From: Promethearchaeota archaeon
GTDB lineage: Archaea > Asgardarchaeota > Lokiarchaeia > Sigyniarchaeales > SOKP01
Length of the DNA stretch: 10,295 bases
Direction of reading: 5' to 3'
NCBI GenBank assembly: GCA_048941265.1
Contig: JBHLNT010000153.1
Span: 1-10,295, forward strand
Under the pieces are notes generated by a model that saw nothing but the letters and a program-made list of their open reading frames with translations, had not been told where the DNA came from and ran no database searches. Shown in pieces: positions 1 through 10,295 of this stretch (position 1 is the stretch's first letter; the number at the start of each line of letters is the position of its first letter). Both the position numbers and the translations under genes were made by a program.

Positions 1-1283
1 ATATTGCGACCATCAATAATTACCGCATTCTTTTTTAATTTCTTTTTAAGATCATCAAGATCAAGATTATAATATTGTTTATGATTAGTTGCGAATATCA
101 AAACATCAGCATCCTTGACTGCTTTATCAATATTATCGGTTAATTCAGTCATCTTATAATCTTTTTCTTTGACATATGGATCATGAGCTATATAGGTAAT
201 GTTATGTGAATGATATCTCTGATGTAAAGTCTGTACAATATTCTCAGTTGGGGTATTGCGAGTATCATCGGTATCAGCTTTATACGCAACGCCCATAAGT
301 GCAATCTTTAAATTATCGTGCTTTTTTGCTTCATTTAAAGCATCCTCCATTAATTCAATCATATGTTCAGGCATCCAATCGTTTAATCTTCTTGATTCTG
401 GTAATATTTTTGGAATATTTTTTCGATCTGTGTATGTCTCTAAACCATACATTAGTAACCAAGGATCTTTAGTAAGACAATGCCCGCCAACTCCCGAACC
501 GGGAGTGTGCATCATTCTGTCATGTCTATAATTAATTAATCTAATAATTTCAAAGATATTTCGATTAAAATCTTCTGCTACCAATGCCATTTCATTAGCA
601 AATGCGATATTCACATCTCTATATGTATTTTCTATACATTTTGTTAGTTCTGCTGTAAGTGTATCTGTTATTTGAAGCTCCTTTTTCACCACTTTTCCAT
701 ATAAGAACTTTGCTCTATTATTAGCTTCCTCGCAACCACCCCCAATCACTCTTGGGAAATCCGTAATGTATTCCAGAAGTTTACCTGGCATAACCCGCTC
801 AAACGAAAAAACTAAATAAAAATCCTTACCTCTCTGCATACCACTCCCTTGTTCTAAAATAGGTTTAACAATATTATCTGTTGTTCCGGGCGCAACGGTT
901 GATTCTATGATGACTGTTACCCCTTTTTTCAAATGCGGAGCAACTAAAGAAGAGACATCTTTTAAAGATTCATATCTCGGAATTTTATGATCATCTACGG
1001 GTGTCTGTACATCTATTAAGATATAATCTGCATTATTACAAACGTTATAATTATCAATTACATGAAATTTTTTATTTTTAACCACTCGTGAAATTAATTC
1101 ATCCAAACCTGGCTCATCGCCTTCAAATGGATTTTTTCCTGCATTAAGATAATCAATTTTCCATCCACTTCTCTGAGATCGTCTTTGTATTCCAGTGACA
1201 TAGAAATCATCCACGTCGGCTAGTAGAGCGGCCATCGGGATTCCTACATATCCCATTCCAATTACTACTATTTTTGTAGTCAT
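1..1283 (-). CDS. Nucleotide-sugar dehydrogenase, UDP-glucose/GDP-mannose dehydrogenase family (WecC/WbpA-like); 3' end runs off the window
   Basis: Not in the ORF track because it has no stop in the window. Hand translation from ATG at 1283: MTTKIVVIGMGYVGIP (Rossmann GxGxxG), IDVQTP, IIESTVAPGTT, FSFERVMPG, AELTKCIENTYRDVNIAFANE, PGSGVGGHCLTKDP (catalytic Cys), and the C-terminal VIIDGRN motif at the window edge. Confidence 0.93.
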   Translation of the reverse strand, partial: MTTKIVVIGMGYVGIPMAALLADVDDFYVTGIQRRSQRSGWKIDYLNAGKNPFEGDEPGLDELISRVVKNKKFHVIDNYNVCNNADYILIDVQTPVDDHKIPRYESLKDVSSLVAPHLKKGVTVIIESTVAPGTTDNIVKPILEQGSGMQRGKDFYLVFSFERVMPGKLLEYITDFPRVIGGGCEEANNRAKFLYGKVVKKELQITDTLTAELTKCIENTYRDVNIAFANEMALVAEDFNRNIFEIIRLINYRHDRMMHTPGSGVGGHCLTKDPWLLMYGLETYTDRKNIPKILPESRRLNDWMPEHMIELMEDALNEAKKHDNLKIALMGVAYKADTDDTRNTPTENIVQTLHQRYHSHNITYIAHDPYVKEKDYKMTELTDNIDKAVKDADVLIFATNHKQYYNLDLDDLKKKLKKNAVIIDGRN

Positions 1284-1424
1284 ATTAATTCTTAAATTTT
1301 TTTTAATTAATGATTAATTTAGTAATTTAAGTATTTATAAATTATTTATGATTCAAAAAATTTGAGATAATGAATCTAATTAAGAAATGGTTTAAAAACA
1401 GTAATTTAAGAATTTAAATTCATC

Positions 1425-1436
1425 AAAAAAAAAAAA
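1425..1436 (-). terminator. Oligo-T (T12) tract, candidate archaeal terminator of the rhomboid gene
   Basis: A12 run on + (T12 on -) about 35 nt downstream of the rhomboid stop at 1470. Archaeal intrinsic terminators are U-tracts. Confidence 0.45.
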
Positions 1437-1469
1437 TTTTATTAATAATATTCAATATGATGTTATTCA

Positions 1470-2111
1470 TCAATATTTTTTACTAAACAATTTAAAGAGA
1501 TAAGCAAAAAAAGCACCTGCAATGAAACCTCCTACATGTGCCATATGAGCAGTACCTGTGGCTCCTAAAGAAACAATTGCATATATTATTTCGGCTACAA
1601 AATATATGAGTATAAATTGCTGTGCTGATATTTTCCTTACTCTAGAACTTCCTAATAATCCCAATTTATTTTTAGGGAAGAGTATTCCATAAACAGCAAT
1701 AATTCCAAAAATAGCACCTGATGCCCCTAATGTGGGAATATCCATCATGAAAGGGACTAATAGAGTAAAAAGTGCATGGAACAACGCAGCTACAATACCA
1801 GATACTATATATGTGATTAGGAAATATAAATGTCCCATTGCTTTTTCACAATTATCGGCGACTACGAAAAAGAACCACATGTTAAAAAGGATATGTATGA
1901 AGTCAGCATGCATAAACATTGAAGTAATAATAGTCCAGTATCTTCTACCCTCAAATAAATCCCGAGGAATGAACGCTGCTTCATAGATAAACATATTCCC
2001 TGTAGGATCCATAAGTTGAACTAAAAAAACTAGTACATTAATGACAATTATCGCTACGGATACATATTGGGTATAAAAAGGAACTCGGTCATCCTCAAGT
2101 TCGATTACCAT
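1470..2111 (-). CDS. Rhomboid-family intramembrane serine protease
   Basis: About 6 hydrophobic helices; YWTIITSMFMH...HILFNM, catalytic GASG serine, AHMAHVGG catalytic His. SD-like GAAGTGA 6 nt upstream of the ATG (2118-2124, - strand). Confidence 0.95.
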   Translation of the reverse strand: MVIELEDDRVPFYTQYVSVAIIVINVLVFLVQLMDPTGNMFIYEAAFIPRDLFEGRRYWTIITSMFMHADFIHILFNMWFFFVVADNCEKAMGHLYFLITYIVSGIVAALFHALFTLLVPFMMDIPTLGASGAIFGIIAVYGILFPKNKLGLLGSSRVRKISAQQFILIYFVAEIIYAIVSLGATGTAHMAHVGGFIAGAFFAYLFKLFSKKY

Positions 2112-2115
2112 TTTA

Positions 2116-2263
2116 ATTCACTTCTTTTAGAGTTTTTGAGATAAAATAAACAAAATTAATTTTTACTTGATAAATGTAACTAAATTCTTTAATAATTTAA
2201 CGGTTTATTACCATTTATGAAACTTGGAAATTCAAGTTTAGACAATATAGCAAAATTAAGACC
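2116..2263 (+). repeat. Direct repeat copy 1 (attL-like): rhomboid/GH172 intergenic region plus first 16 codons of GH172
   Basis: 2116-2137 is identical (22/22) to 4038-4059. 2149-2263 matches 4070-4184 at 102/115 by hand alignment. Confidence 0.95.
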
Positions 2264-2288
2264 ACGGATACATGGTAAATATGTATAA
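2217..2288 (+). pseudogene. Truncated 5' fragment of the GH172 gene (MKLGNSSLDNIAKLRP, then unrelated RIHGKYV*)
   Basis: 14 of the first 16 residues are identical to the 4138 ORF (MKLGKSSLDDIAKLRP). Homology stops abruptly and TAA follows at 2286-2288. Confidence 0.85.
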
Positions 2289-4037
2289 TAATATTGATTA
2301 AATCTAATATCCTAATTGTTTTTTCTGAATTCCTTAATGTGTAATATGAAATTATACAAAATTGTTAAATATTATATAATCATAATTTAATTTAATCCGA
2401 TTAAATTTTGAGATAAAAATCAATTGATATTGACTTTCTCTCAAAAGAAGTCCATTCAAACATATAATAATATAATTATGAATTCAGTAATAAATGAAAA
2501 AGATGAAAAAAGGCGATATTTCAAGAGATATAGCAAAATTTTCCGAAAATATAAAGGTTTAACTGTTCAAGCATTTGTTAAAAAGCTTAGAATTAATCCC
2601 AATGATCCTTCAGCCATCAAATCTCTCTCTCCTCAAGAAGCTGTAGATATTTTAATGATGATAGCTCTAAGTTCAATTCCATTTGGACTGATATTTAAAA
2701 AGAAAATCATTGAAAAACTGGGAGAAAATCCAGAAAATATAACTTTTGAAAAAATAATAGTTACTCTTAAATCAATTTCTTTAGAGGATATAAAAGATGA
2801 AAAATTACAGACATTTTTAGCGAAAAGATTAACGAGCATTAATCGAGAAAATATAGAAAATCCGTTCGAATCTAAAATAAAACTAAAGCATTATCCTGTT
2901 ACAAAGCGATTTATTATAATACCTGCTCATGTGAAAATAGCAGAAATTATTGGTGTTGATGATAAAATATTACAAATACTAAGAGAGTTCATTAATGATG
3001 AGAGAATGTTTTTAAGTATTGAGAACGAGCAGATGCATGATCAATTCCAAATCGAATTAGATAAAATTCAATTAATCAAAGATGCTACAACTATGGCGGC
3101 TAATTTTGGAATAAATCCTGAATTAGCCGTAATTCTATGTCAAAATTTTGATATAGAAGAATTAGCATCAAAAAATTTAAAAGATATTAAAGATGCAATA
3201 AAAAGTTCTAAAATAAACGTTCCTGAGAGACAATATACTGATAAAATATTAACTAAGTTACAAAAAACTGCTGAAGAACAGAACCCCAATCTGGTATCTT
3301 TAAATAAGGTTATTTCTGATTTAAAACTAAAATCAGTCTTAGAAAAATCAGGAATAAAAATCAGAACTATCGATGATTTTAAGAAGACTATAACAGATGA
3401 GAAAGAATCGAAGACTATTCTTGATATCGTGTCTGCACAGATAAAATCTAAAAAAAAAATTGAATCTCTAAAAGCATATGTTAGGCTAGAAAAAATATCT
3501 AAAAATTTTGAATTAAATAAAGCTTTAATTGAGAATAATTTGACTTCTTTTTATGATATAACCCGTATTCCACTTTTTGTATTCCAATATAAATTCAGAG
3601 ATAAAGCATCAATAAATGAATTAAAAGAGTTATACTTCAAGGCTCAAGAAAATTTGGTTAAAAATATTACTCTTGGGTCACTTTCAACTCTTAATCAGCA
3701 ACAGTCTGCTCTAGATTATCTTATTCTCAAATAAAGTTCGGGGATATCTCAACCAGTGAATAGTAATAGGACTAAAAAGAAGGTAGATGGAAATTAGTGG
3801 GGGGGCATTCTTCAATAAATAGTGCGATGGTTTTTTTGAGTTTATCATGAATAGATTTTATGGAAACGGATACGGGAAAGATTATCCCCCTGTGAATGAC
3901 AATGGAATTAAATTTTATCCCAATACTACTAAAATACTGAGTACTTTTAGGGATATTTTTTATGAAAAGTATAAGTAGCTTATTAATATTAAATTTCGAA
4001 ATTCTATTTCAATAGTTCAATCAGAAAAGAAATTTTT
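2264..4037. mobile_element. ~1.8 kb inserted island or integrated-element remnant between the direct repeats
   Basis: Bounded by the duplicated promoter/5' gene segment. Holds one orphan ORF and a degraded small ORF. No integrase, transposase or terminal inverted repeats were seen. Confidence 0.6.
2424..3734 (+). CDS. Hypothetical helical, Lys-rich protein with HhH-like motifs; C-terminal part resembles the N-terminal region of Tc-toxin A-subunit (TcA)-like proteins
   Basis: 436-codon ORF (TTG 2424; alternative ATG 2478). Motifs FGINPELAVIL...IEELAS, LEKSGIKIRTIDDF and LKAYVRLEKISKNFELNKALIENNLTSFYDITRIP...ELYFKAQ. The ORF is solid; the family call is from recall only. Confidence 0.6.
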   Translation: MILTFSQKKSIQTYNNIIMNSVINEKDEKRRYFKRYSKIFRKYKGLTVQAFVKKLRINPNDPSAIKSLSPQEAVDILMMIALSSIPFGLIFKKKIIEKLGENPENITFEKIIVTLKSISLEDIKDEKLQTFLAKRLTSINRENIENPFESKIKLKHYPVTKRFIIIPAHVKIAEIIGVDDKILQILREFINDERMFLSIENEQMHDQFQIELDKIQLIKDATTMAANFGINPELAVILCQNFDIEELASKNLKDIKDAIKSSKINVPERQYTDKILTKLQKTAEEQNPNLVSLNKVISDLKLKSVLEKSGIKIRTIDDFKKTITDEKESKTILDIVSAQIKSKKKIESLKAYVRLEKISKNFELNKALIENNLTSFYDITRIPLFVFQYKFRDKASINELKELYFKAQENLVKNITLGSLSTLNQQQSALDYLILK

Positions 4038-4184
4038 ATTCACTTCTTTTAGAGTTTTTAACTTTAATTAACAAAATTAATTTTTATTTGATAATTGTGA
4101 CTAAATTCTTTAATAACTTAACGATTTATTACCATTTATGAAACTTGGAAAATCAAGTTTGGATGATATTGCTAAACTGAGACC
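4038..4184 (+). repeat. Direct repeat copy 2 (attR-like), supplying the upstream region and start of the intact GH172 gene
   Basis: See copy 1. It keeps the rhomboid SD-like sequence (tcacttc at 4040-4046) but has no rhomboid ATG next to it. Confidence 0.95.
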
Positions 4185-5331
4185 TGATTCAATAAAAAGG
4201 AGGAGAATTTCTAGTTACGATAAAAAAGGGGGAAATCGTGATTGGATTGATATAAAAGCAGGAGAAAAGGTTGTGTTAGGTGAGATTCAAGGAGCAGGCT
4301 GTATTACTCATATATGGTGCACATGTATGTGTATTTCAAAATACTCAATACGAAATGCAATTATTAGAATGTATTGGGATGGGGAAGATGAAAATAGCCC
4401 TAGTGTTGAAGTTCCTATCGGAGATTTTTTTGGTATGGGACATGGTGAACGAAAAAACTTTGTATCAACGCCACTTCAAATGAGCCCTCGCAAAGGGAGG
4501 GGATTTAATTGCTGGTGGCCTATGCCTTTTTCAAAATCTTTTAAGATTACTTTAGAAAATGATAATCCTAAGAGATTTCGCTTGTATTATTATATCGATT
4601 ATGAATTATATGAGAACGGGTTTGAGAATGAAGCGGATTATGGCAGATTTCATGCTCAATGGCGCCGAGAAAATCCACCAAAAGTAAAAATACGGAGTCC
4701 TAGCTCGGGGAAAAAATATACACCAAAGAAGCCAATTAGATTTATGTTTTTAGGATTAAACACCGAACCTCTAAAGTACAATTACAAAATTTTAGAGGTA
4801 AGAGGAAAGGGGCATTATGTAGGATGTCATTTAGATATTGATAATATTACATTCATGCCTTGGTTTACTAATTGGCCAGGTGAAGGAGATGATATGATCT
4901 TTATAGATGATGATATTGATAAAGAATTTCCCACTCTTTATGGAACTGGAACAGAAGATTATGTTAACCAAGCTTTTTCGCAAAGAGAAAAATATTCCGC
5001 TCCCTATCATGGTACTATAAAAACCGGAGGCTTTAATTGGAGGGGTAAAATTACCTATTATAGATATCATATAGAAGATCCAGTTTATTTCAACAAAAAA
5101 ATTATTGTAACTATTGAACATGGACATGATAACCATCGAAAGGATGATTGGTCATCAACAGCATATTGGTATCAGAAAGAACCTCATGACCACACATTAT
5201 TTCCAAAATTATTAAATCGAGAAGATAGGAAACCCCGTTCAAATGGCGGGTCTAAAATAAGAAGGATTACCTGTATACTAATCCTAATATTGTTAATCTT
5301 TATAATTTTCTCAAAGTTCTATTTAGTTTAA
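4138..5331 (+). CDS. Glycoside hydrolase family 172 (DUF2961) protein with C-terminal transmembrane anchor
   Basis: SSYDKKGGNRD, GAGCITHIWCT, MYWDGE...PSVEVPIGDFFG, NCWWPMPF, YYYIDYE, WPGEGDD, GTGTEDY, YRYHIEDPVYF, IEHGH, DWSSTAYWYQ are typical DUF2961 motifs. Hydrophobic tail ITCILILILLIFIIF. Confidence 0.92.
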   Translation: MKLGKSSLDDIAKLRPDSIKRRRISSYDKKGGNRDWIDIKAGEKVVLGEIQGAGCITHIWCTCMCISKYSIRNAIIRMYWDGEDENSPSVEVPIGDFFGMGHGERKNFVSTPLQMSPRKGRGFNCWWPMPFSKSFKITLENDNPKRFRLYYYIDYELYENGFENEADYGRFHAQWRRENPPKVKIRSPSSGKKYTPKKPIRFMFLGLNTEPLKYNYKILEVRGKGHYVGCHLDIDNITFMPWFTNWPGEGDDMIFIDDDIDKEFPTLYGTGTEDYVNQAFSQREKYSAPYHGTIKTGGFNWRGKITYYRYHIEDPVYFNKKIIVTIEHGHDNHRKDDWSSTAYWYQKEPHDHTLFPKLLNREDRKPRSNGGSKIRRITCILILILLIFIIFSKFYLV

Positions 5332-5720
5332 GCGCTTAATTTTTCTTTTAACATATTTTCAACGAATTTCAATAGATCTTTCCCGGAAAAAGGTTTCGTT
5401 ATATAACCATCTGCTCCTAATTTTTTACCTTTTTGGATGTCTTCGTTAAAACTTTTGACGGTAAAGAGCACGACGATGATATCTTTATATTTCTCGTGCG
5501 TTTTAATTTCCTTTAATACAGAATAACCAGAAGTACCAGGCATCATTATATCAAGTAAAATTAAAGCGATTTCATCGTGGCTTTCCTTTACAATTTCCAT
5601 GGCATCTCTGCCGTTATTGCAGGTAATCGTATTGAAATCTCCGAGTTTTAAAAACTTTTCAGTTAAATTAACAATATCAGGTTCATCATCAACAATTAGG
5701 ATGGTATTTTTTTCTTTCAT
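5328..5720 (-). CDS. Single-domain response regulator (CheY-like receiver)
   Basis: ILIVDDE acidic pocket, LLDIMMP phospho-acceptor Asp, conserved Thr (LFTVK), GADGYITKPF. Its stop overlaps the convergent GH172 stop (TTAA 5328-5331). Confidence 0.95.
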   Translation of the reverse strand: MKEKNTILIVDDEPDIVNLTEKFLKLGDFNTITCNNGRDAMEIVKESHDEIALILLDIMMPGTSGYSVLKEIKTHEKYKDIIVVLFTVKSFNEDIQKGKKLGADGYITKPFSGKDLLKFVENMLKEKLSA

Positions 5721-5838
5721 ATCCTTACAAATAATTTAGTCACGTTTACTGTCTAATATATGAATAATTGTTTTTAATATATTTTAACTATTATATATTG
5801 ATATTTAATTGTTTTTTTTTCTCTTCAATGTGATCGCA

Positions 5839-6489
5839 TTGGCAAAAACAAAACTACCCACATTCCCAGATTCATATATAGGTGATAAAGCAGATGAATA
5901 TGATAGCTTAAAATGGATGCAACGGAATCAGAAAAGAGCAACCTTAAAAACAATTAATTATCTTGTTGATAATAAATTAGGTAAAACTAAGTACAATCTA
6001 GAAGAAGATCTTCCTTTAATAGTTTTGGATCTGGGTTGCGGAACCGGATTCTCTTCAGAAATGTTAGCTGAGTATGGTTTTAGGGTAATTGGTGTAGATA
6101 TTCTCCATGATATGCTTTCAAAAGCAGATAAAAAGAGGAGAATGCTAGATATTCCTAATCTTGAGCTTATTTTAGCTGATATTAACTATTTGCCAATAAG
6201 GAACCATTCAATTCATTTTATTATATCAATTTCAGCTTATAATTTCATCATCTATGAAAAACGCGGTCAAAGAAATAAAAGGATGGTCATGAATAATACC
6301 GCTAAATATTTACATAAAATTTTAAAACATGAGGGACGGATGGTTATTGAATTTTACCCTGAAAATGATGAAGAATTGAAATTATTTAACTTATCATTCA
6401 TTGAGAATAGCTTCGAAGGATTCATGGTAAAAATCGTTCCAAATCAGAAATCAGGGCAAACCTTTCTGTTATTAAAAAAAAAACGATAA
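5839..6489 (+). CDS. Class I SAM-dependent methyltransferase, Bud23/WBSCR22-like (putative SSU rRNA m7G methyltransferase)
   Basis: VLDLGCGTG motif I and GVDI...ML, plus Bud23-type ISISA, FYPEND and P-x-x-KS...FLLL motifs. Start moved from TTG 5809 to TTG 5839 because GTGA (SD-like) lies at 5830-5833. Confidence 0.8.
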   Translation: MAKTKLPTFPDSYIGDKADEYDSLKWMQRNQKRATLKTINYLVDNKLGKTKYNLEEDLPLIVLDLGCGTGFSSEMLAEYGFRVIGVDILHDMLSKADKKRRMLDIPNLELILADINYLPIRNHSIHFIISISAYNFIIYEKRGQRNKRMVMNNTAKYLHKILKHEGRMVIEFYPENDEELKLFNLSFIENSFEGFMVKIVPNQKSGQTFLLLKKKR

Positions 6490-6492
6490 AAT

Positions 6493-7632
6493 ATGGGAAC
6501 TTGTAAATTTTGTGGCAGTAAAGATAATTGTATATCTAATGTCCTGCAAATTTGCAGGGAGTGTATATTAAATCAGGATTGGAATATTGTAAAATCTCAT
6601 ATACTTTCGATACATAAAAAGGTAAGACAACAAGAAGAATTACCAGATTTGCCACCGAAAGCAGATTCAAATATTAAATTAAAATGTAACTTTTGTCTAA
6701 ATGAATGCATTCTTTCTGAAAATGATGTAAGTTATTGTGGATTAAGGAATATTCATAAAAATCAGAGCGGAGAATTACCATTTCCGACAAGAAATAAAGG
6801 ATATATCCATGGTTATATTGATGCCAATCCAACAAATTGCTGTAATAGTTGGTTCTGCCCAGCTGGAAGTTCAAGCGGATTTCCAGCCTATTCTGTTATG
6901 GTGGGTCCGGAATTTGGAACATATTCATATGCGGCGTTCCTTTATGGTTGTTCTTTTGATTGCCTGTTCTGTCAAAATTGGTCACATAAAAGGGTTTCTA
7001 AGCAATATTTGCATGATGTAGAAACTTTAGCAAATCAAATTGTTAGAAATAAGAAGATTACCTGTCTATGTTATTTTGGAGGTACACCTGAGGTACAATT
7101 ACCATTTTCAATAAATCTAGCTGAAAAAATTCTTGAGAAAATCGAGAATGAAGGTGAAAGGCGAATTTTTAGAGTATGTTGGGAATGGAATGGAAGCGGA
7201 AACCGTAAATTAGTAGAAAATTGCATGGAAATCGCTATTAAAACCGGGGGGAATATAAAATTTGACTTAAAAAGTTTTAATGAAAAATTGAATTTAGCAT
7301 TGTGTGGAGTTAATAACAGGAGAACGCTAGAAAACTTCAAATTTCTTGCCGAAAATTATTTTGGGACACGTGGTAAAGAAATGCCAGAGATGAGCGCATG
7401 TACTTTAATGGTTCCTGGATATGTGAATCATGAGGAAGTAGAACAAATTGCAAGATTCGTTAGTGAATTAAACAATGAAATTCCTTATAGTTTATTAGTC
7501 TTTCACGGAGATTATCAAATGAGAGATTTGCCCATAACTCCACGGAAGCAAGCAGAAAAATGTTTTGAAGTTGCAAAAAATTACTTAGAAAGAGTAAATT
7601 TAGGAAATAAATTTCTGTTAGGATTCTTTTAG
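6493..7632 (+). CDS. Radical SAM protein, PflA/COG1180-like (AmmeMemoRadiSam AmrS-related) with extra Cys clusters
   Basis: GCSFDCLFCQN (CxxxCxxC), YFGGTP, EWNG, KFDLKS. N-terminal CKFC...CREC and CNFCLNEC...YCGLR. Starts 3 nt after the methyltransferase stop. Confidence 0.88.
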   Translation: MGTCKFCGSKDNCISNVLQICRECILNQDWNIVKSHILSIHKKVRQQEELPDLPPKADSNIKLKCNFCLNECILSENDVSYCGLRNIHKNQSGELPFPTRNKGYIHGYIDANPTNCCNSWFCPAGSSSGFPAYSVMVGPEFGTYSYAAFLYGCSFDCLFCQNWSHKRVSKQYLHDVETLANQIVRNKKITCLCYFGGTPEVQLPFSINLAEKILEKIENEGERRIFRVCWEWNGSGNRKLVENCMEIAIKTGGNIKFDLKSFNEKLNLALCGVNNRRTLENFKFLAENYFGTRGKEMPEMSACTLMVPGYVNHEEVEQIARFVSELNNEIPYSLLVFHGDYQMRDLPITPRKQAEKCFEVAKNYLERVNLGNKFLLGFF

Positions 7633-7728
7633 TTTTAATCAAACACTCATTTGACCATCAGATAATAAAATTTATTTAATAGCAATAATTATCGATTATG
7701 CAAATATTAATTAAGAATTTGATAAAAT

Positions 7729-7743
7729 CGTAAAGTTTAAAAA
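7729..7743 (+). promoter_or_regulatory. Candidate BRE + TATA box for the uS10 gene
   Basis: CGTAAAG-TTTAAAAA fits the archaeal BRE/TATA layout, 28 nt before the inferred start. The AT-rich background lowers specificity. Confidence 0.4.
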
Positions 7744-7752
7744 CCTTTTACT

Positions 7753-7757
7753 GGTGA
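7753..7757 (+). promoter_or_regulatory. Shine-Dalgarno GGTGA upstream of the uS10 ATA codon
   Basis: GGTGA followed by a 6-nt spacer, then ATA at 7764. Confidence 0.6.
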
Positions 7758-7763
7758 TATAAG

Positions 7764-8069
7764 ATACAAAAAGCTCGCATACGATTATCTTCTACCGACT
7801 TAGAAGCTTTAAAATCAGTATGTGAGCAGTTAGAAAATGTGTGCTCAAAGACGGGTATTAAACGTTATGGCCCCATTCCCTTGCCAACTAAACATTTAAA
7901 AGTTCCTGTGCTGAAAGCTCCTTCTGGTCAAGGGACTAATACTTGGGCGAAATTTGAGATGCGCATCCATAAACGGCTTTTTGAGATTATTACTGATGAA
8001 AAAAGTATGCATCTCATAATGAAGATTCAAATTCCAGAATCAGTTTTAGTTGAAATTGAATTGATGTAA
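7764..8069 (+). CDS. rpsJ: 30S ribosomal protein uS10, 101 aa, probable ATA start
   Basis: The frame extends upstream of the called GTG (7839): ATA-QKARIRLSSTDLEALKSVCEQLENVCSKTG...GPIPLPTK...FEMRIHKRL. This matches the archaeal S10 start MQKARIRL. In-frame TGA at 7755-7757 bounds the frame. Confidence 0.95.
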   Translation: MQKARIRLSSTDLEALKSVCEQLENVCSKTGIKRYGPIPLPTKHLKVPVLKAPSGQGTNTWAKFEMRIHKRLFEIITDEKSMHLIMKIQIPESVLVEIELM

Positions 8070-8186
8070 TCAAACTTTTTATAATCAATGCAAATCATAT
8101 TTTTAAATGAATTTAAATCATTAAAGATCAATTATTCTATTAAGAAACTAAGATTAAACTAAAGTAAAAATAAAGATTTGAATGCT

Positions 8187-8915
8187 ATGGCTGACTTTCA
8201 CATTAAAAGTTTTTTTGGTCAGAATAGAGGATTAATAATCAACAGCCCAGCAAAATTAGTTCCTTATATATTTCTCCAATCGATAAAAAGGAAAAAAGAT
8301 GGGAGCTGGGAAAAACCGACGAAAGGAGAAGGAAAAACTGTAAAACTTTCAATAGAAGAAATCATATGTATTTTAGAAGTTCTTAAACGTAAAAGTGCTA
8401 ATTGGCGTGGGTATCATGTGTTTGAAGATTATAAGACCGAAATCTATGTTGGCTGGGAAAGCGAAGCAAGAGAAGTCTTAATAGTTATCGTTGGTGAGTA
8501 TAAAAAGAAATTAAGGTTTCCAAATACAAATTTTCTAACTCTATTGCTTGAGCATATATTGTCTGAAAAAATAGAATTTGCTACTTCAGGTACTTTTGAA
8601 TCAAAAGCTGAAAAAATAGAGAGCAAAGATTACGGAGTATTTTCTGAGCACATTACCGCGAGAGACGGTCTTCAAGTTGTAGAAACTACGGAATATGCTG
8701 TTGATAAAGAAGTTATGGAAATTAATGGAAAAATCAAAGTTGAAAGTCCTAAAGCTATATTGCTGATAATAGATACAGGCAATGAATTCTGGATTCCAAA
8801 GAGCACTATACATAATAGCTATAACGCTAACGATAAAGAAACTTATCAAAAATTAATTGTAGATAAATGGATTATAGAAAAATATATCATTGGTATTTTT
8901 GATAAGTACGAATAA
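8187..8915 (+). CDS. Hypothetical two-domain protein: N-terminal Whirly/PC4-like domain plus C-terminal KA...WIPKS domain
   Basis: 242-aa ORF from ATG 8187 (alternative TTG 8178). FLQSIKRKKDGSWEKP...GKTVKLSIEEII...YHVF; ESPKAILL...FWIPKSTI...VDKWIIEK. The fold call is tentative. Confidence 0.65.
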   Translation: MADFHIKSFFGQNRGLIINSPAKLVPYIFLQSIKRKKDGSWEKPTKGEGKTVKLSIEEIICILEVLKRKSANWRGYHVFEDYKTEIYVGWESEAREVLIVIVGEYKKKLRFPNTNFLTLLLEHILSEKIEFATSGTFESKAEKIESKDYGVFSEHITARDGLQVVETTEYAVDKEVMEINGKIKVESPKAILLIIDTGNEFWIPKSTIHNSYNANDKETYQKLIVDKWIIEKYIIGIFDKYE

Positions 8916-9029
8916 ATTAGAAGAAAATTGAGAATTTAAACAACAAATACTAAGAGAGCTAGAGAGAATTTTTAACTTCAATAAAAGTTATTTGCTTTTT
9001 TTAATTTGAATAATTAATACTAAAATTTA

Positions 9030-9863
9030 ATGATCTTAATGGAAATTACCTTAAATCTGTTAAAATCAATTGCTTTGGAAGTCTATGACACAGTAAATCC
9101 ATTACTAGGTACAAAAAAAGCTGCTGAAAAACTTAATAAAGGTGCTGGGGGCGATATTTCAATGCATATAGATGTTGTTGCTGAAAATGTTATTATTAAT
9201 GAACTAAAAAAGAATGAGATAGATGTTTTATTCATAAGCGAAGAGATAGGTGAACAATATATAGGTGATCAGCAGACAATTTTAAAAAATAAACATAAAC
9301 TAGTCGTAGATCCAGTTGACGGGTCTAATAATGCTGTTAGGGGTATTCCTTATTCCTCCGTTTCAATTGCTTATGCTGTGGGAGATCGACTTAAAGATGT
9401 TGAATTGGCTGTAATAATCAATTTATACACAAAAGATTTATATTGGGCCATAAAAGGAGAAGGTTCTTACATGAACGGGAACAGAATATTTGTTTCTGAT
9501 ATAGATATAACACAAAAAAGCTTTTTCGAAATAGATATTTCAAAGAAAGACTTATTTAAATATTTAAAAATTTTTAAAAAGATCTTTGAAAATCCCTTAA
9601 AAATTAGAATAATGGGAAGTACAGCATTGACTTTATGTCAAATTGCTAGTGGAAGCGTTGATGCATTCCTTAATTTAAGAATTACTAGTCGTGTAGTTGA
9701 TGCCGCAGCGGGTTATTTAATTATTATAGAATCTGGAGGGAAAATTTTTACCTTAAATGGATCTGATATCAACCAAGAATTATTATCAATTAATACCAGG
9801 TTTCCTTTTGTTGCCTGTAATTCTAAGTTAGAGAGTTTTCTTAAAAAAGCATTAATGGTTTAA
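9030..9863 (+). CDS. suhB: Inositol monophosphatase / fructose-1,6-bisphosphatase (archaeal bifunctional, SuhB family)
   Basis: GAGGD...IDVVAE, ISEE, DPVDGSNN, RIMGSTAL, DAAAGYLI motifs. Alternative start ATG 9039. Confidence 0.92.
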   Translation: MILMEITLNLLKSIALEVYDTVNPLLGTKKAAEKLNKGAGGDISMHIDVVAENVIINELKKNEIDVLFISEEIGEQYIGDQQTILKNKHKLVVDPVDGSNNAVRGIPYSSVSIAYAVGDRLKDVELAVIINLYTKDLYWAIKGEGSYMNGNRIFVSDIDITQKSFFEIDISKKDLFKYLKIFKKIFENPLKIRIMGSTALTLCQIASGSVDAFLNLRITSRVVDAAAGYLIIIESGGKIFTLNGSDINQELLSINTRFPFVACNSKLESFLKKALMV

Positions 9864-9868
9864 AATTA

Positions 9869-10295
9869 CTAATCCGGAACATTAATGGGATAATTTCCAT
9901 ATTTCCTCCTTATATCCTGCATTGCCTCAAATCTGTCAAGTGTAACTGCTGGATTAATTGAATGTCCACTACTAAAAATGTATCCACCACCAGGAGCTAG
10001 TTCACGTATTAAACTTTTTGCATAACTTTCGATTTCGGAAATTTCCCCCATTGCCAACATAATTGGACTTAAATTCCCATAAAAAGATATTTTATCTCCA
10101 TATTTCTCATTTAACTTAAAAATGTCATATTCAGGATTAGCAGTAGTCGATTCAATAGGGTGTAATACATCTACCCCACTTTCTACTATGTCTTCGAAAA
10201 TTTCCATCAAATCTCCATCAGAATGAAGTAAAATCTTGCAATCTCGTTTATGGGCCGCATCACAGATTTGTTTTATCCAAGGGAAAACAAATTTT
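9869..10295 (-). CDS. Uroporphyrinogen decarboxylase / MtaA-CmuA family protein, C-terminal part (5' end outside window)
   Basis: The frame is open to the window edge: KFVFPWIKQICDAAHKRDCKILLHSDGDL...GVDVLHPIE...FYGNLS...PGGGYIFSSGHSI. Confidence 0.88.
   Translation of the reverse strand, partial: KFVFPWIKQICDAAHKRDCKILLHSDGDLMEIFEDIVESGVDVLHPIESTTANPEYDIFKLNEKYGDKISFYGNLSPIMLAMGEISEIESYAKSLIRELAPGGGYIFSSGHSINPAVTLDRFEAMQDIRRKYGNYPINVPD

Follow-up and report, generated by a model that had tools for sequence, protein, structure and literature searches.

Bud23 of Saccharomyces cerevisiae and human BUD23-WBSCR22, together with Trm112/TRMT112, constitute the 18S ribosomal RNA (rRNA) (guanine1575/1639-N7)-methyltransferase, and the Trm112-dependent enzymes Trm9, Trm11 and Mtq2 act on targets such as transfer RNA (tRNA) or translation proteins. 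A relative of Bud23 is encoded in a 10,295-nucleotide stretch of DNA from a Promethearchaeota archaeon (contig JBHLNT010000153.1, positions 1 to 10,295, assembly GCA_048941265.1), referred to below in its whole length as the window (G+C about 30%). We call this gene and its clade W, and a second Bud23-like family, represented in the same genome by the gene C138, is called C; f1, f2, f3 and so on denote genome families, f1 being the window's own and f2 a sister family. An original prediction, made from the letters of the window, had taken the gene for a prokaryotic homologue of Bud23 and an archaeal precursor of the Bud23 step. W is homologous to Bud23 by sequence, by profile and by fold. With moderate confidence, we read it as an active Bud23-family enzyme of a diverged clade, most likely arisen by tandem duplication, which with a Trm112-like protein would methylate the RNA of the small ribosomal subunit (SSU), with a target or chemistry differing from that of C138.

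The literature on archaeal relatives of Bud23 is divided. Passages in two papers from the Trm112 field hold that no archaeal protein is significantly similar to Bud23, and that there is no 7-methylguanosine (m7G) at the corresponding 16S rRNA position (PMC5372719, PMC6144793). A figure legend in Ebersberger et al., 2013 gives BUD23 'orthologs' in all taxa including bacteria, with one Pfam domain lacking (PMC3919561). In the main text of Birikmen et al., 2021 no eukaryotic factor is described as exclusive to Asgard archaea and Bud23 does not appear, though its supplements may list such genes (PMC8481954); nor is Bud23 mentioned in the main text of PMC8997704. A full-text literature search for papers joining Bud23/WBSCR22 with Asgard, with words beginning in 'Lokiarchae' or with 'eukaryotic signature proteins' returned none. 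The homology of W to Bud23 contradicts the specialist reviews in those passages that deny archaeal relatives (PMC5372719, PMC6144793).

An open reading frame (ORF) spans 5809..6489 on the + strand, and an alignment with 24 homologues (57-81% identity), most of which open with M-x-[RK]-K-x-x-LP-x-FP, fixes the start of W at the TTG at 5839, where the original prediction had also put it; translation from this codon gives 216 residues. The ORF is real and encodes a class I S-adenosylmethionine (SAM) methyltransferase. Its Pfam matches are to generic class I families only (Methyltransf_25/31/11, 49-54 bits). Among the 25 members of the W family the SAM motifs LDLGCGTG, D87 and D114 vary little or not at all, and these intact, invariant motifs make it most likely that W is catalytically active.

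When W was compared with all PDB chains by phmmer, human WBSCR22/BUD23 came top (E 6e-15) and yeast Bud23 next (about 2e-11), the Bud23/WBSCR22 chains ranging from 6e-15 to 4.5e-11 with 26-28% identity to W. A profile of the W family (25 members) matched these chains at 1.5e-19 to 4e-19 with 72-74 bits (best 73.7), its best match outside Bud23 being PH0226 (55.9 bits, 4e-14). The AlphaFold2 model of W, built from a 53-row alignment, has a Rossmann-like fold with a predicted local distance difference test score (pLDDT) of 93 and a predicted template modelling score (pTM) of 0.90. The best 8 matches of this model in a Foldseek search of the PDB were all Bud23/WBSCR22, with E 4e-17 to 7e-15, template modelling scores on the target (TMt) of 0.73-0.90, root-mean-square deviations of 2.2-2.7 A and 192-206 aligned columns of the 216-residue model. 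Generic methyltransferases rank below them at E 9e-12, a gap of ~3 orders of magnitude, with template modelling scores on the query (TMq) of ~0.6. Solved structures of Bud23/WBSCR22 are PDB 4QTT, 4QTU, 6G4W and 7WTS-7WTW.

The likeness extends to individual blocks. The C-terminal motif pairs named in the original prediction are visible when W is aligned by HMMER with yeast Bud23 (4qtt_B) and human WBSCR22 (7wtw_q), isisaynf of W standing against isisaiqw of Bud23, efypende against qfypkndd, and fegfmvkivpnqksgqtfll against fsgglvvddpeskknkkyyl. The N-terminal pairs (PDSYIGDKADEY..., MQRNQKRATLKTINYL...) lie beyond single-sequence HMMER, whose local alignments begin at residue 53-61, but are covered by profile-profile and fold alignments; the profile-profile alignment of W to the C family spans residues 8-216, and the C family aligns to yeast Bud23 from C residue 3. 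The long basic C-terminal tail is missing, as had been noted from the outset: the W protein has no match to Pfam WBS_methylT (PF12589) and ends at residue 216 with 'LLLKKKR'. The same tail is absent from all archaeal members aligned in the W and C alignments, and among the 150 best representatives listed a KYTGRKR-type tail motif occurs only in longer proteins (241-393 residues), which are taken as eukaryotic on that basis.

W is not the only Bud23-like gene of its genome, nor the one closest to Bud23. The source genome (G000; 5.01 Mb in 361 contigs, 91% complete) was searched with the eukaryotic Bud23 representative P0194, a protein of 281 residues with a KYTxRxR tail, and the best match was the C138 gene (78.2 bits, query 3-202), with W second (58.8 bits, query 44-201) and so not the reciprocal best hit. 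The reciprocal search that had been suggested for W thus points to its paralogue. Against yeast Bud23 the C family profile reaches 118 bits in a full-length match (E 3.4e-33, positions 13-208), compared with 74 bits for the W family profile, and the next non-Bud23 chain scores 42 bits with the C profile. C keeps RPEE, ISISALQW, QFYPKN and IDNPxxxKKRxIFL like eukaryotic Bud23, which W does not; the C138 protein itself reads RPEE..., ISISALQW, QFYPKN and IDNPDNAKKRRIFLVLKK. ISISA[IL]QW and QFYP are largely common to eukaryotes, Loki-C and other archaeal members and are not found in W, where the clade motifs are ISISA[YF]NF, EFYP and WMxRNQ, and the window protein has ISISAYNF for ISISA[IL]QW and EFYP for QFYP. 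By scores and motifs, C is the more Bud23-like copy. The two proteins, of the same length class and both without the basic tail, are 30% identical over 157 residues and align with an hhalign probability of 99.9 over 191 columns, and the C family is conserved among the same organisms as well as the W family is.

A careful tree was made with IQ-TREE under LG+C20 by posterior mean site frequency (PMSF), using 64 rows and 217 columns and including 7 outgroup methyltransferase rows; before it, 25 rows of the first set had been dropped to save time and 16 archaeal rows from genomes added. In this tree the W clade (19 rows, support 96/99) unites the window, the W-core type, metagenomic W-like proteins, second copies from f2 and the single copy of genome G025, while the Loki-C clade (7 rows) is supported at 100/99 and the eukaryotic clade at 100/100, and DPANN archaea and the small-genome family f3 form further archaeal groups. 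On this tree W is a distinct paralogue clade, and W-core sits on a long stem branch (0.54). Here, as in the second quick tree, the backbone is a polytomy, and the careful tree does not decide between C and W as sister to eukaryotic Bud23. A grouping of C-like proteins with eukaryotes in the first quick tree (88 in the Shimodaira-Hasegawa-like approximate likelihood ratio test) was lost after rows were added. A recent transfer from eukaryotes to archaea finds no support: the eukaryotic rows form a single long-stemmed clade that includes none of the archaeal rows. What stands of the archaeal precursor proposed in the original prediction is membership of the Bud23 family; what does not is the choice of this gene in particular, which is the second-best reciprocal match, has changed motifs and falls in a clade of its own in a tree undecided on the eukaryotic sister.

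Bud23-like genes are patchily distributed. Among 151 sampled genomes of the window's phylum, searched with the C profile at E <= 1e-18, such a gene was found in 32, namely 26/26 of f1, 2/2 of f2, 3/4 of f3 (genomes of 1.3-1.4 Mb) and 1/1 of f18; the other 119/151 had no match at this threshold, and 23 families were without any. The W-core type (W profile, E < 1e-70) is confined, among the 151, to f1, where 21 of 26 genomes have it; f2 and f18 have W-like genes (W profile, 1e-31 to 1e-43). Bud23-like genes were also found in 6/121 sampled genomes of a DPANN phylum and in three DPANN-labelled genomes reached via related loci. The closest homologues of W (57-99% identity, among the matches listed) are named Promethearchaeota and other Asgard groups by their sources, and NCBI titles of close homologues include Thor-, Hod-, Hermod- and Odinarchaeota. 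Loci titled Thorarchaeota or Hodarchaeota (e.g. L017, L025) have their genes in the window's order and neighbouring proteins of ~65-80% identity, and the submitters' taxon names on such loci may be loose. These titles were not used to infer a wide Asgard spread, because W-core is found only in f1 among the 151 genomes and the named loci share the window's order with neighbours 55-87% identical.

A candidate partner is encoded elsewhere in the genome. A Pfam Trm112p search of raw G000 at E <= 1e-3 found none, and at E <= 10 it gave two half-matches 160 residues apart in one ORF, which encodes the Trm112-like protein listed in Table 1 and, taken whole, passes the Pfam cut-off. In this protein an insertion of ~125 residues splits the two halves of the zinc knuckle (CPxD...CxxC), and this long form is present in 30/31 relatives. 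A 76-residue zinc-ribbon ORF on contig C132 was rejected as Trm112, since it is more like ribbon families of the TFIIB type and its Trm112p score, 18.3 bits, falls short of the cut-off of 22. A model of the complex of W with the Trm112-like protein scored an ipSAE of 0.93/0.93/0.92 against 0.01 for the best of 3 controls, at a mark reached by 58/80 solved complexes and 2/110 mismatched pairs; at least 89% of contacts are shared between runs, with a pLDDT of at least 91 for the partner. The predicted interface joins residues 109-114 and 116-121 of W (strand beta3 and the following loop) to residues 8-13 and 166-173 of the partner. Modelling with the host Trm112, proposed as a check alongside the original prediction, thus gave a predicted interface, and W is predicted to bind the Trm112-like protein.

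The gene neighbourhood of W is set out in Table 1. Across 13 related loci of named Asgard metagenome-assembled genomes the common order is response regulator (-), W, radical SAM gene, uS10 and a 245-residue ORF (orf245). The response regulator is upstream of W in 13/13; uS10 is downstream in 10/13, two loci ending before it and one having none within 2.8 kb; and orf245 lies downstream of uS10 in 9/13, at 63-95% identity. The radical SAM gene, which begins 4 nucleotides after W, is directly 3' of it in 11/12 loci with downstream DNA and is 63-87% identical in 11 loci. Its NCBIfam match to AmmeMemoRadiSam (49 bits, cut-off 220) and its best PDB match, PflA (1.7e-5), are weak; a functional link to W is not supported, as matches are only of this weak PflA type and neither locus L026 nor L117 of the sister family has the gene between W and uS10.

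Table 1. Coordinates of W, its neighbours and the related genes of the same genome. Positions are those of the window unless a contig or locus is named.
Feature	Position	Strand	Remarks
436-residue ORF	2424-3734	+	No Pfam or NCBIfam match
Stand-alone response-regulator receiver gene, divergent upstream of W	5328..5720	-	Pfam Response_reg 90.9 bits
Bud23-family methyltransferase gene, clade W	5839..6489	+	216 residues, TTG start, stop codon included
Radical SAM protein, PflA-activase-like, Cys-rich N-terminus	6493..7632	+	379 residues; Pfam Radical_SAM 53.6 bits
Ribosomal protein uS10, downstream of W	7764..8069	+	Pfam Ribosomal_S10 71.7 bits; apparent ATA start
245-residue ORF (orf245)	8178-8915	+	No Pfam or NCBIfam match
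Second Bud23-like gene, C	G000:C138:41774-42364	-	213 residues (P0274); beside ribosomal protein eS25
Trm112-like protein	G000:C154:25072-25692 = L002:970-1593	-	207 residues; Pfam Trm112p 32.5 bits, cut-off 22

The C gene also keeps company with ribosomal protein genes. It stands back to back with a Pfam Ribosomal_S25 gene (30.8 bits, cut-off 28.8) in 12/12 f1 loci, and the f2 locus L117 (G089:C60) reads eS25 (-), a C-type gene of 217 residues, a W-type gene and uS10, so that C and W are tandem neighbours there. Genome G094, also of f2, has the same C-W tandem with uS10 further downstream. Counted by coordinates, a strong C-type match followed on the same strand, 45-290 nucleotides away, by a weaker second copy occurs in 7/7 f2 genomes and 1/1 of f28, the tree placing the second copy in the W clade for G089 and G094 only. 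The two copies are non-adjacent in all 4 genomes of f29. The single copy of G001 (f3) is divergent to uS7, and of the DPANN copies one has L7Ae upstream and another is followed by an Asp/Asn-tRNA synthetase gene. The W-type copy of L117 (2201-3115, +) carries a lysine-rich N-terminal extension of ~85 residues that recalls the basic tail of Bud23 at the opposite end. The simplest reading of these arrangements, and the most likely, is a tandem duplication among clustered genes for small-subunit head proteins, followed by a split in f1.

The uS10 gene of the window has a peculiarity of its own. Read at full length, it carries none of the codons ATG, GTG and TTG at its conserved start, and a TGA stands in frame 3 codons before it. 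The window and five related loci (L016, L017, L019, L024, L028) have ATA as their first conserved codon, in the position where five other relatives have ATG, GTG or TTG. This suggests that an essential ribosomal protein gene initiates at ATA.

Together, family, fold, Trm112 partner and persistent ribosomal-protein neighbours are the grounds on which we propose that W acts with Trm112 on RNA of the SSU head. The duplicated ancestor would have been a Bud23-like gene among small-subunit head-protein genes (eS25, uS10). W would pair with the long Trm112-like protein as a heterodimer, by a beta-zipper on strand beta3 (residues 109-114) like that of Bud23-Trm112, and would methylate small-subunit RNA, probably 16S rRNA in the head. 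C138 would be the better candidate for m7G at the equivalent of yeast G1575. A target or chemistry different from that of C is suggested by the retention of both copies in most f1 genomes and by the changed blocks after beta4 and beta5. The analysis itself establishes the family, the fold, the intact SAM motifs, the pair of paralogues, the gene order and a Trm112 encoded in the genome; the binding of W to Trm112, its rRNA substrate and its different target are what we infer.

Several observations weigh against this proposal. The relatives in which conserved gene order was seen are all fairly close ones, with 55-87% identity between neighbouring genes. W is absent from 5/26 sampled f1 genomes, two f1 genomes have W only and one has a partial C only. 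A W-like gene stands alone, without a C copy, in G025 (f18), for which reason the duplication may be older than the Loki order, or a transfer may have occurred. The complex score possibly reflects only likeness to known structures, since Bud23-Trm112 complexes have already been solved. In the tree, the ingroup is separated from the 7 outgroup rows with weak support (74/96), and eukaryotic Bud23 is not placed with C rather than W. A tree uniting eukaryotes with W costs 0.27 log-likelihood units (p 0.48 in the approximately unbiased, AU, test) and one uniting eukaryotes with Loki-C costs 6.96 (p-AU 0.21); neither is rejected. As the former stands unrejected, eukaryotic Bud23 could even descend from the W lineage and not from the conservative copy. 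The motif IV changes are conservative (Q-to-N, W-to-F), and W could make m7G at the same site.

These last points lead to the rival that survives best, though we consider it rather unlikely: that W itself fills the role of eukaryotic Bud23, as its orthologue or co-orthologue, and with Trm112 forms m7G at the 16S equivalent of yeast G1575. Bud23 being the best match of W in sequence and fold, the small cost of joining W to the eukaryotes, the chemically mild changes in motif IV, the Trm112 interface predicted far above its controls and the lysine-rich extension of the sister-family copy all agree with it. They are set against C138, which is the better reciprocal match, whose family fits Bud23 much better and over the full length, and in which ISISALQW and QFYPKN are kept as in eukaryotes; the long stem of W-core and the keeping of two copies together in most genomes, which argues for different jobs, also count against it.

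A position off the rRNA is less probable again. W would then methylate another translation component, e.g. a tRNA, a ribosomal protein or a translation factor. Trm112 serves enzymes with RNA as well as protein substrates and binds many methyltransferases in Haloferax, as a passage in PMC6144793 describes, and W has altered pocket motifs and an invariant N-terminal WMxRNQK of its own. However, the whole W fold including its N-terminal helices is nearest to Bud23, the adjacency to uS10 is conserved, and the likeness to Trm9, Trm11 and Mtq2 is at the generic level only: the Trm11-Trm112 entry of A. fulgidus is at rank 30 in the Foldseek search (E 7.6e-11, TMq 0.54), and NCBIfam PrmC gives W 24 bits against a cut-off of 199. 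That W is a small-molecule methyltransferase of the UbiE/BioC/ArsM type, as several automatic annotations have it, is barely credible: the Joint Genome Institute (JGI) names 7 of 120 listed homologues 'ubiquinone/menaquinone biosynthesis C-methylase UbiE', but 3 '18S rRNA (guanine1575-N7)-methyltransferase' (and 1 'SAM-dependent methyltransferase'), Bud23 ranks above all such enzymes among the PDB matches in both sequence and fold, and the weak NCBIfam matches span the SAM-binding half only and fall far below their cut-offs (ArsM 47.7 vs 263, BioC 42.8 vs 185, UbiE/MenG 34.9 vs 158, UbiG 36.5 vs 103), with no NCBIfam family near its cut-off on W and no sign of the grouping with UbiE/BioC-type enzymes by which the original prediction could have failed.

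The proposal that W is a diverged Bud23-family enzyme acting on SSU RNA has consequences beyond the window. A Loki-type Asgard genome carries two Bud23-like genes and a Trm112 with a large insertion, with patchy relatives in other archaea, which traces a eukaryotic family of 40S-maturation enzymes back to an archaeal origin; the predicted rRNA marks could be sought in cultured Lokiarchaeia. Being the more diverged of the two genome copies, W probably sets a mark on the ribosome other than that of Bud23. As a derived paralogue, the window gene is a lead to such a separate mark, and not by itself the ancestor of the eukaryotic step.

Two described systems can be set beside W. Like Hvo_0019-Trm112 of H. 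volcanii (PDB 6F5Z), it is a class I methyltransferase of an archaeon for which binding through a Trm112 beta-zipper is expected, as a passage in PMC6144793 describes for that pair. Hvo_0019 belongs to a different family, and its fold match to W is generic only (Foldseek rank 40, E 1.3e-10, TMq 0.56). The comparison with Bud23 goes further. Both have a class I SAM core of ~200 residues with the same N-terminal helices, both have the ISISA, FYP-x-N and C-terminal hairpin blocks, and the W genome encodes a Trm112 homologue predicted to form the same beta3 zipper. W differs in lacking the basic WBS_methylT tail, in its motif IV ISISAYNF and in EFYP for QFYP, and where Bud23 has DxPxSxKxKK in the C-terminal hairpin W has PNQKSGQT, together with an N-terminal motif of its own, FPDSYxGxKAEEYDxxKWMxRNQK.

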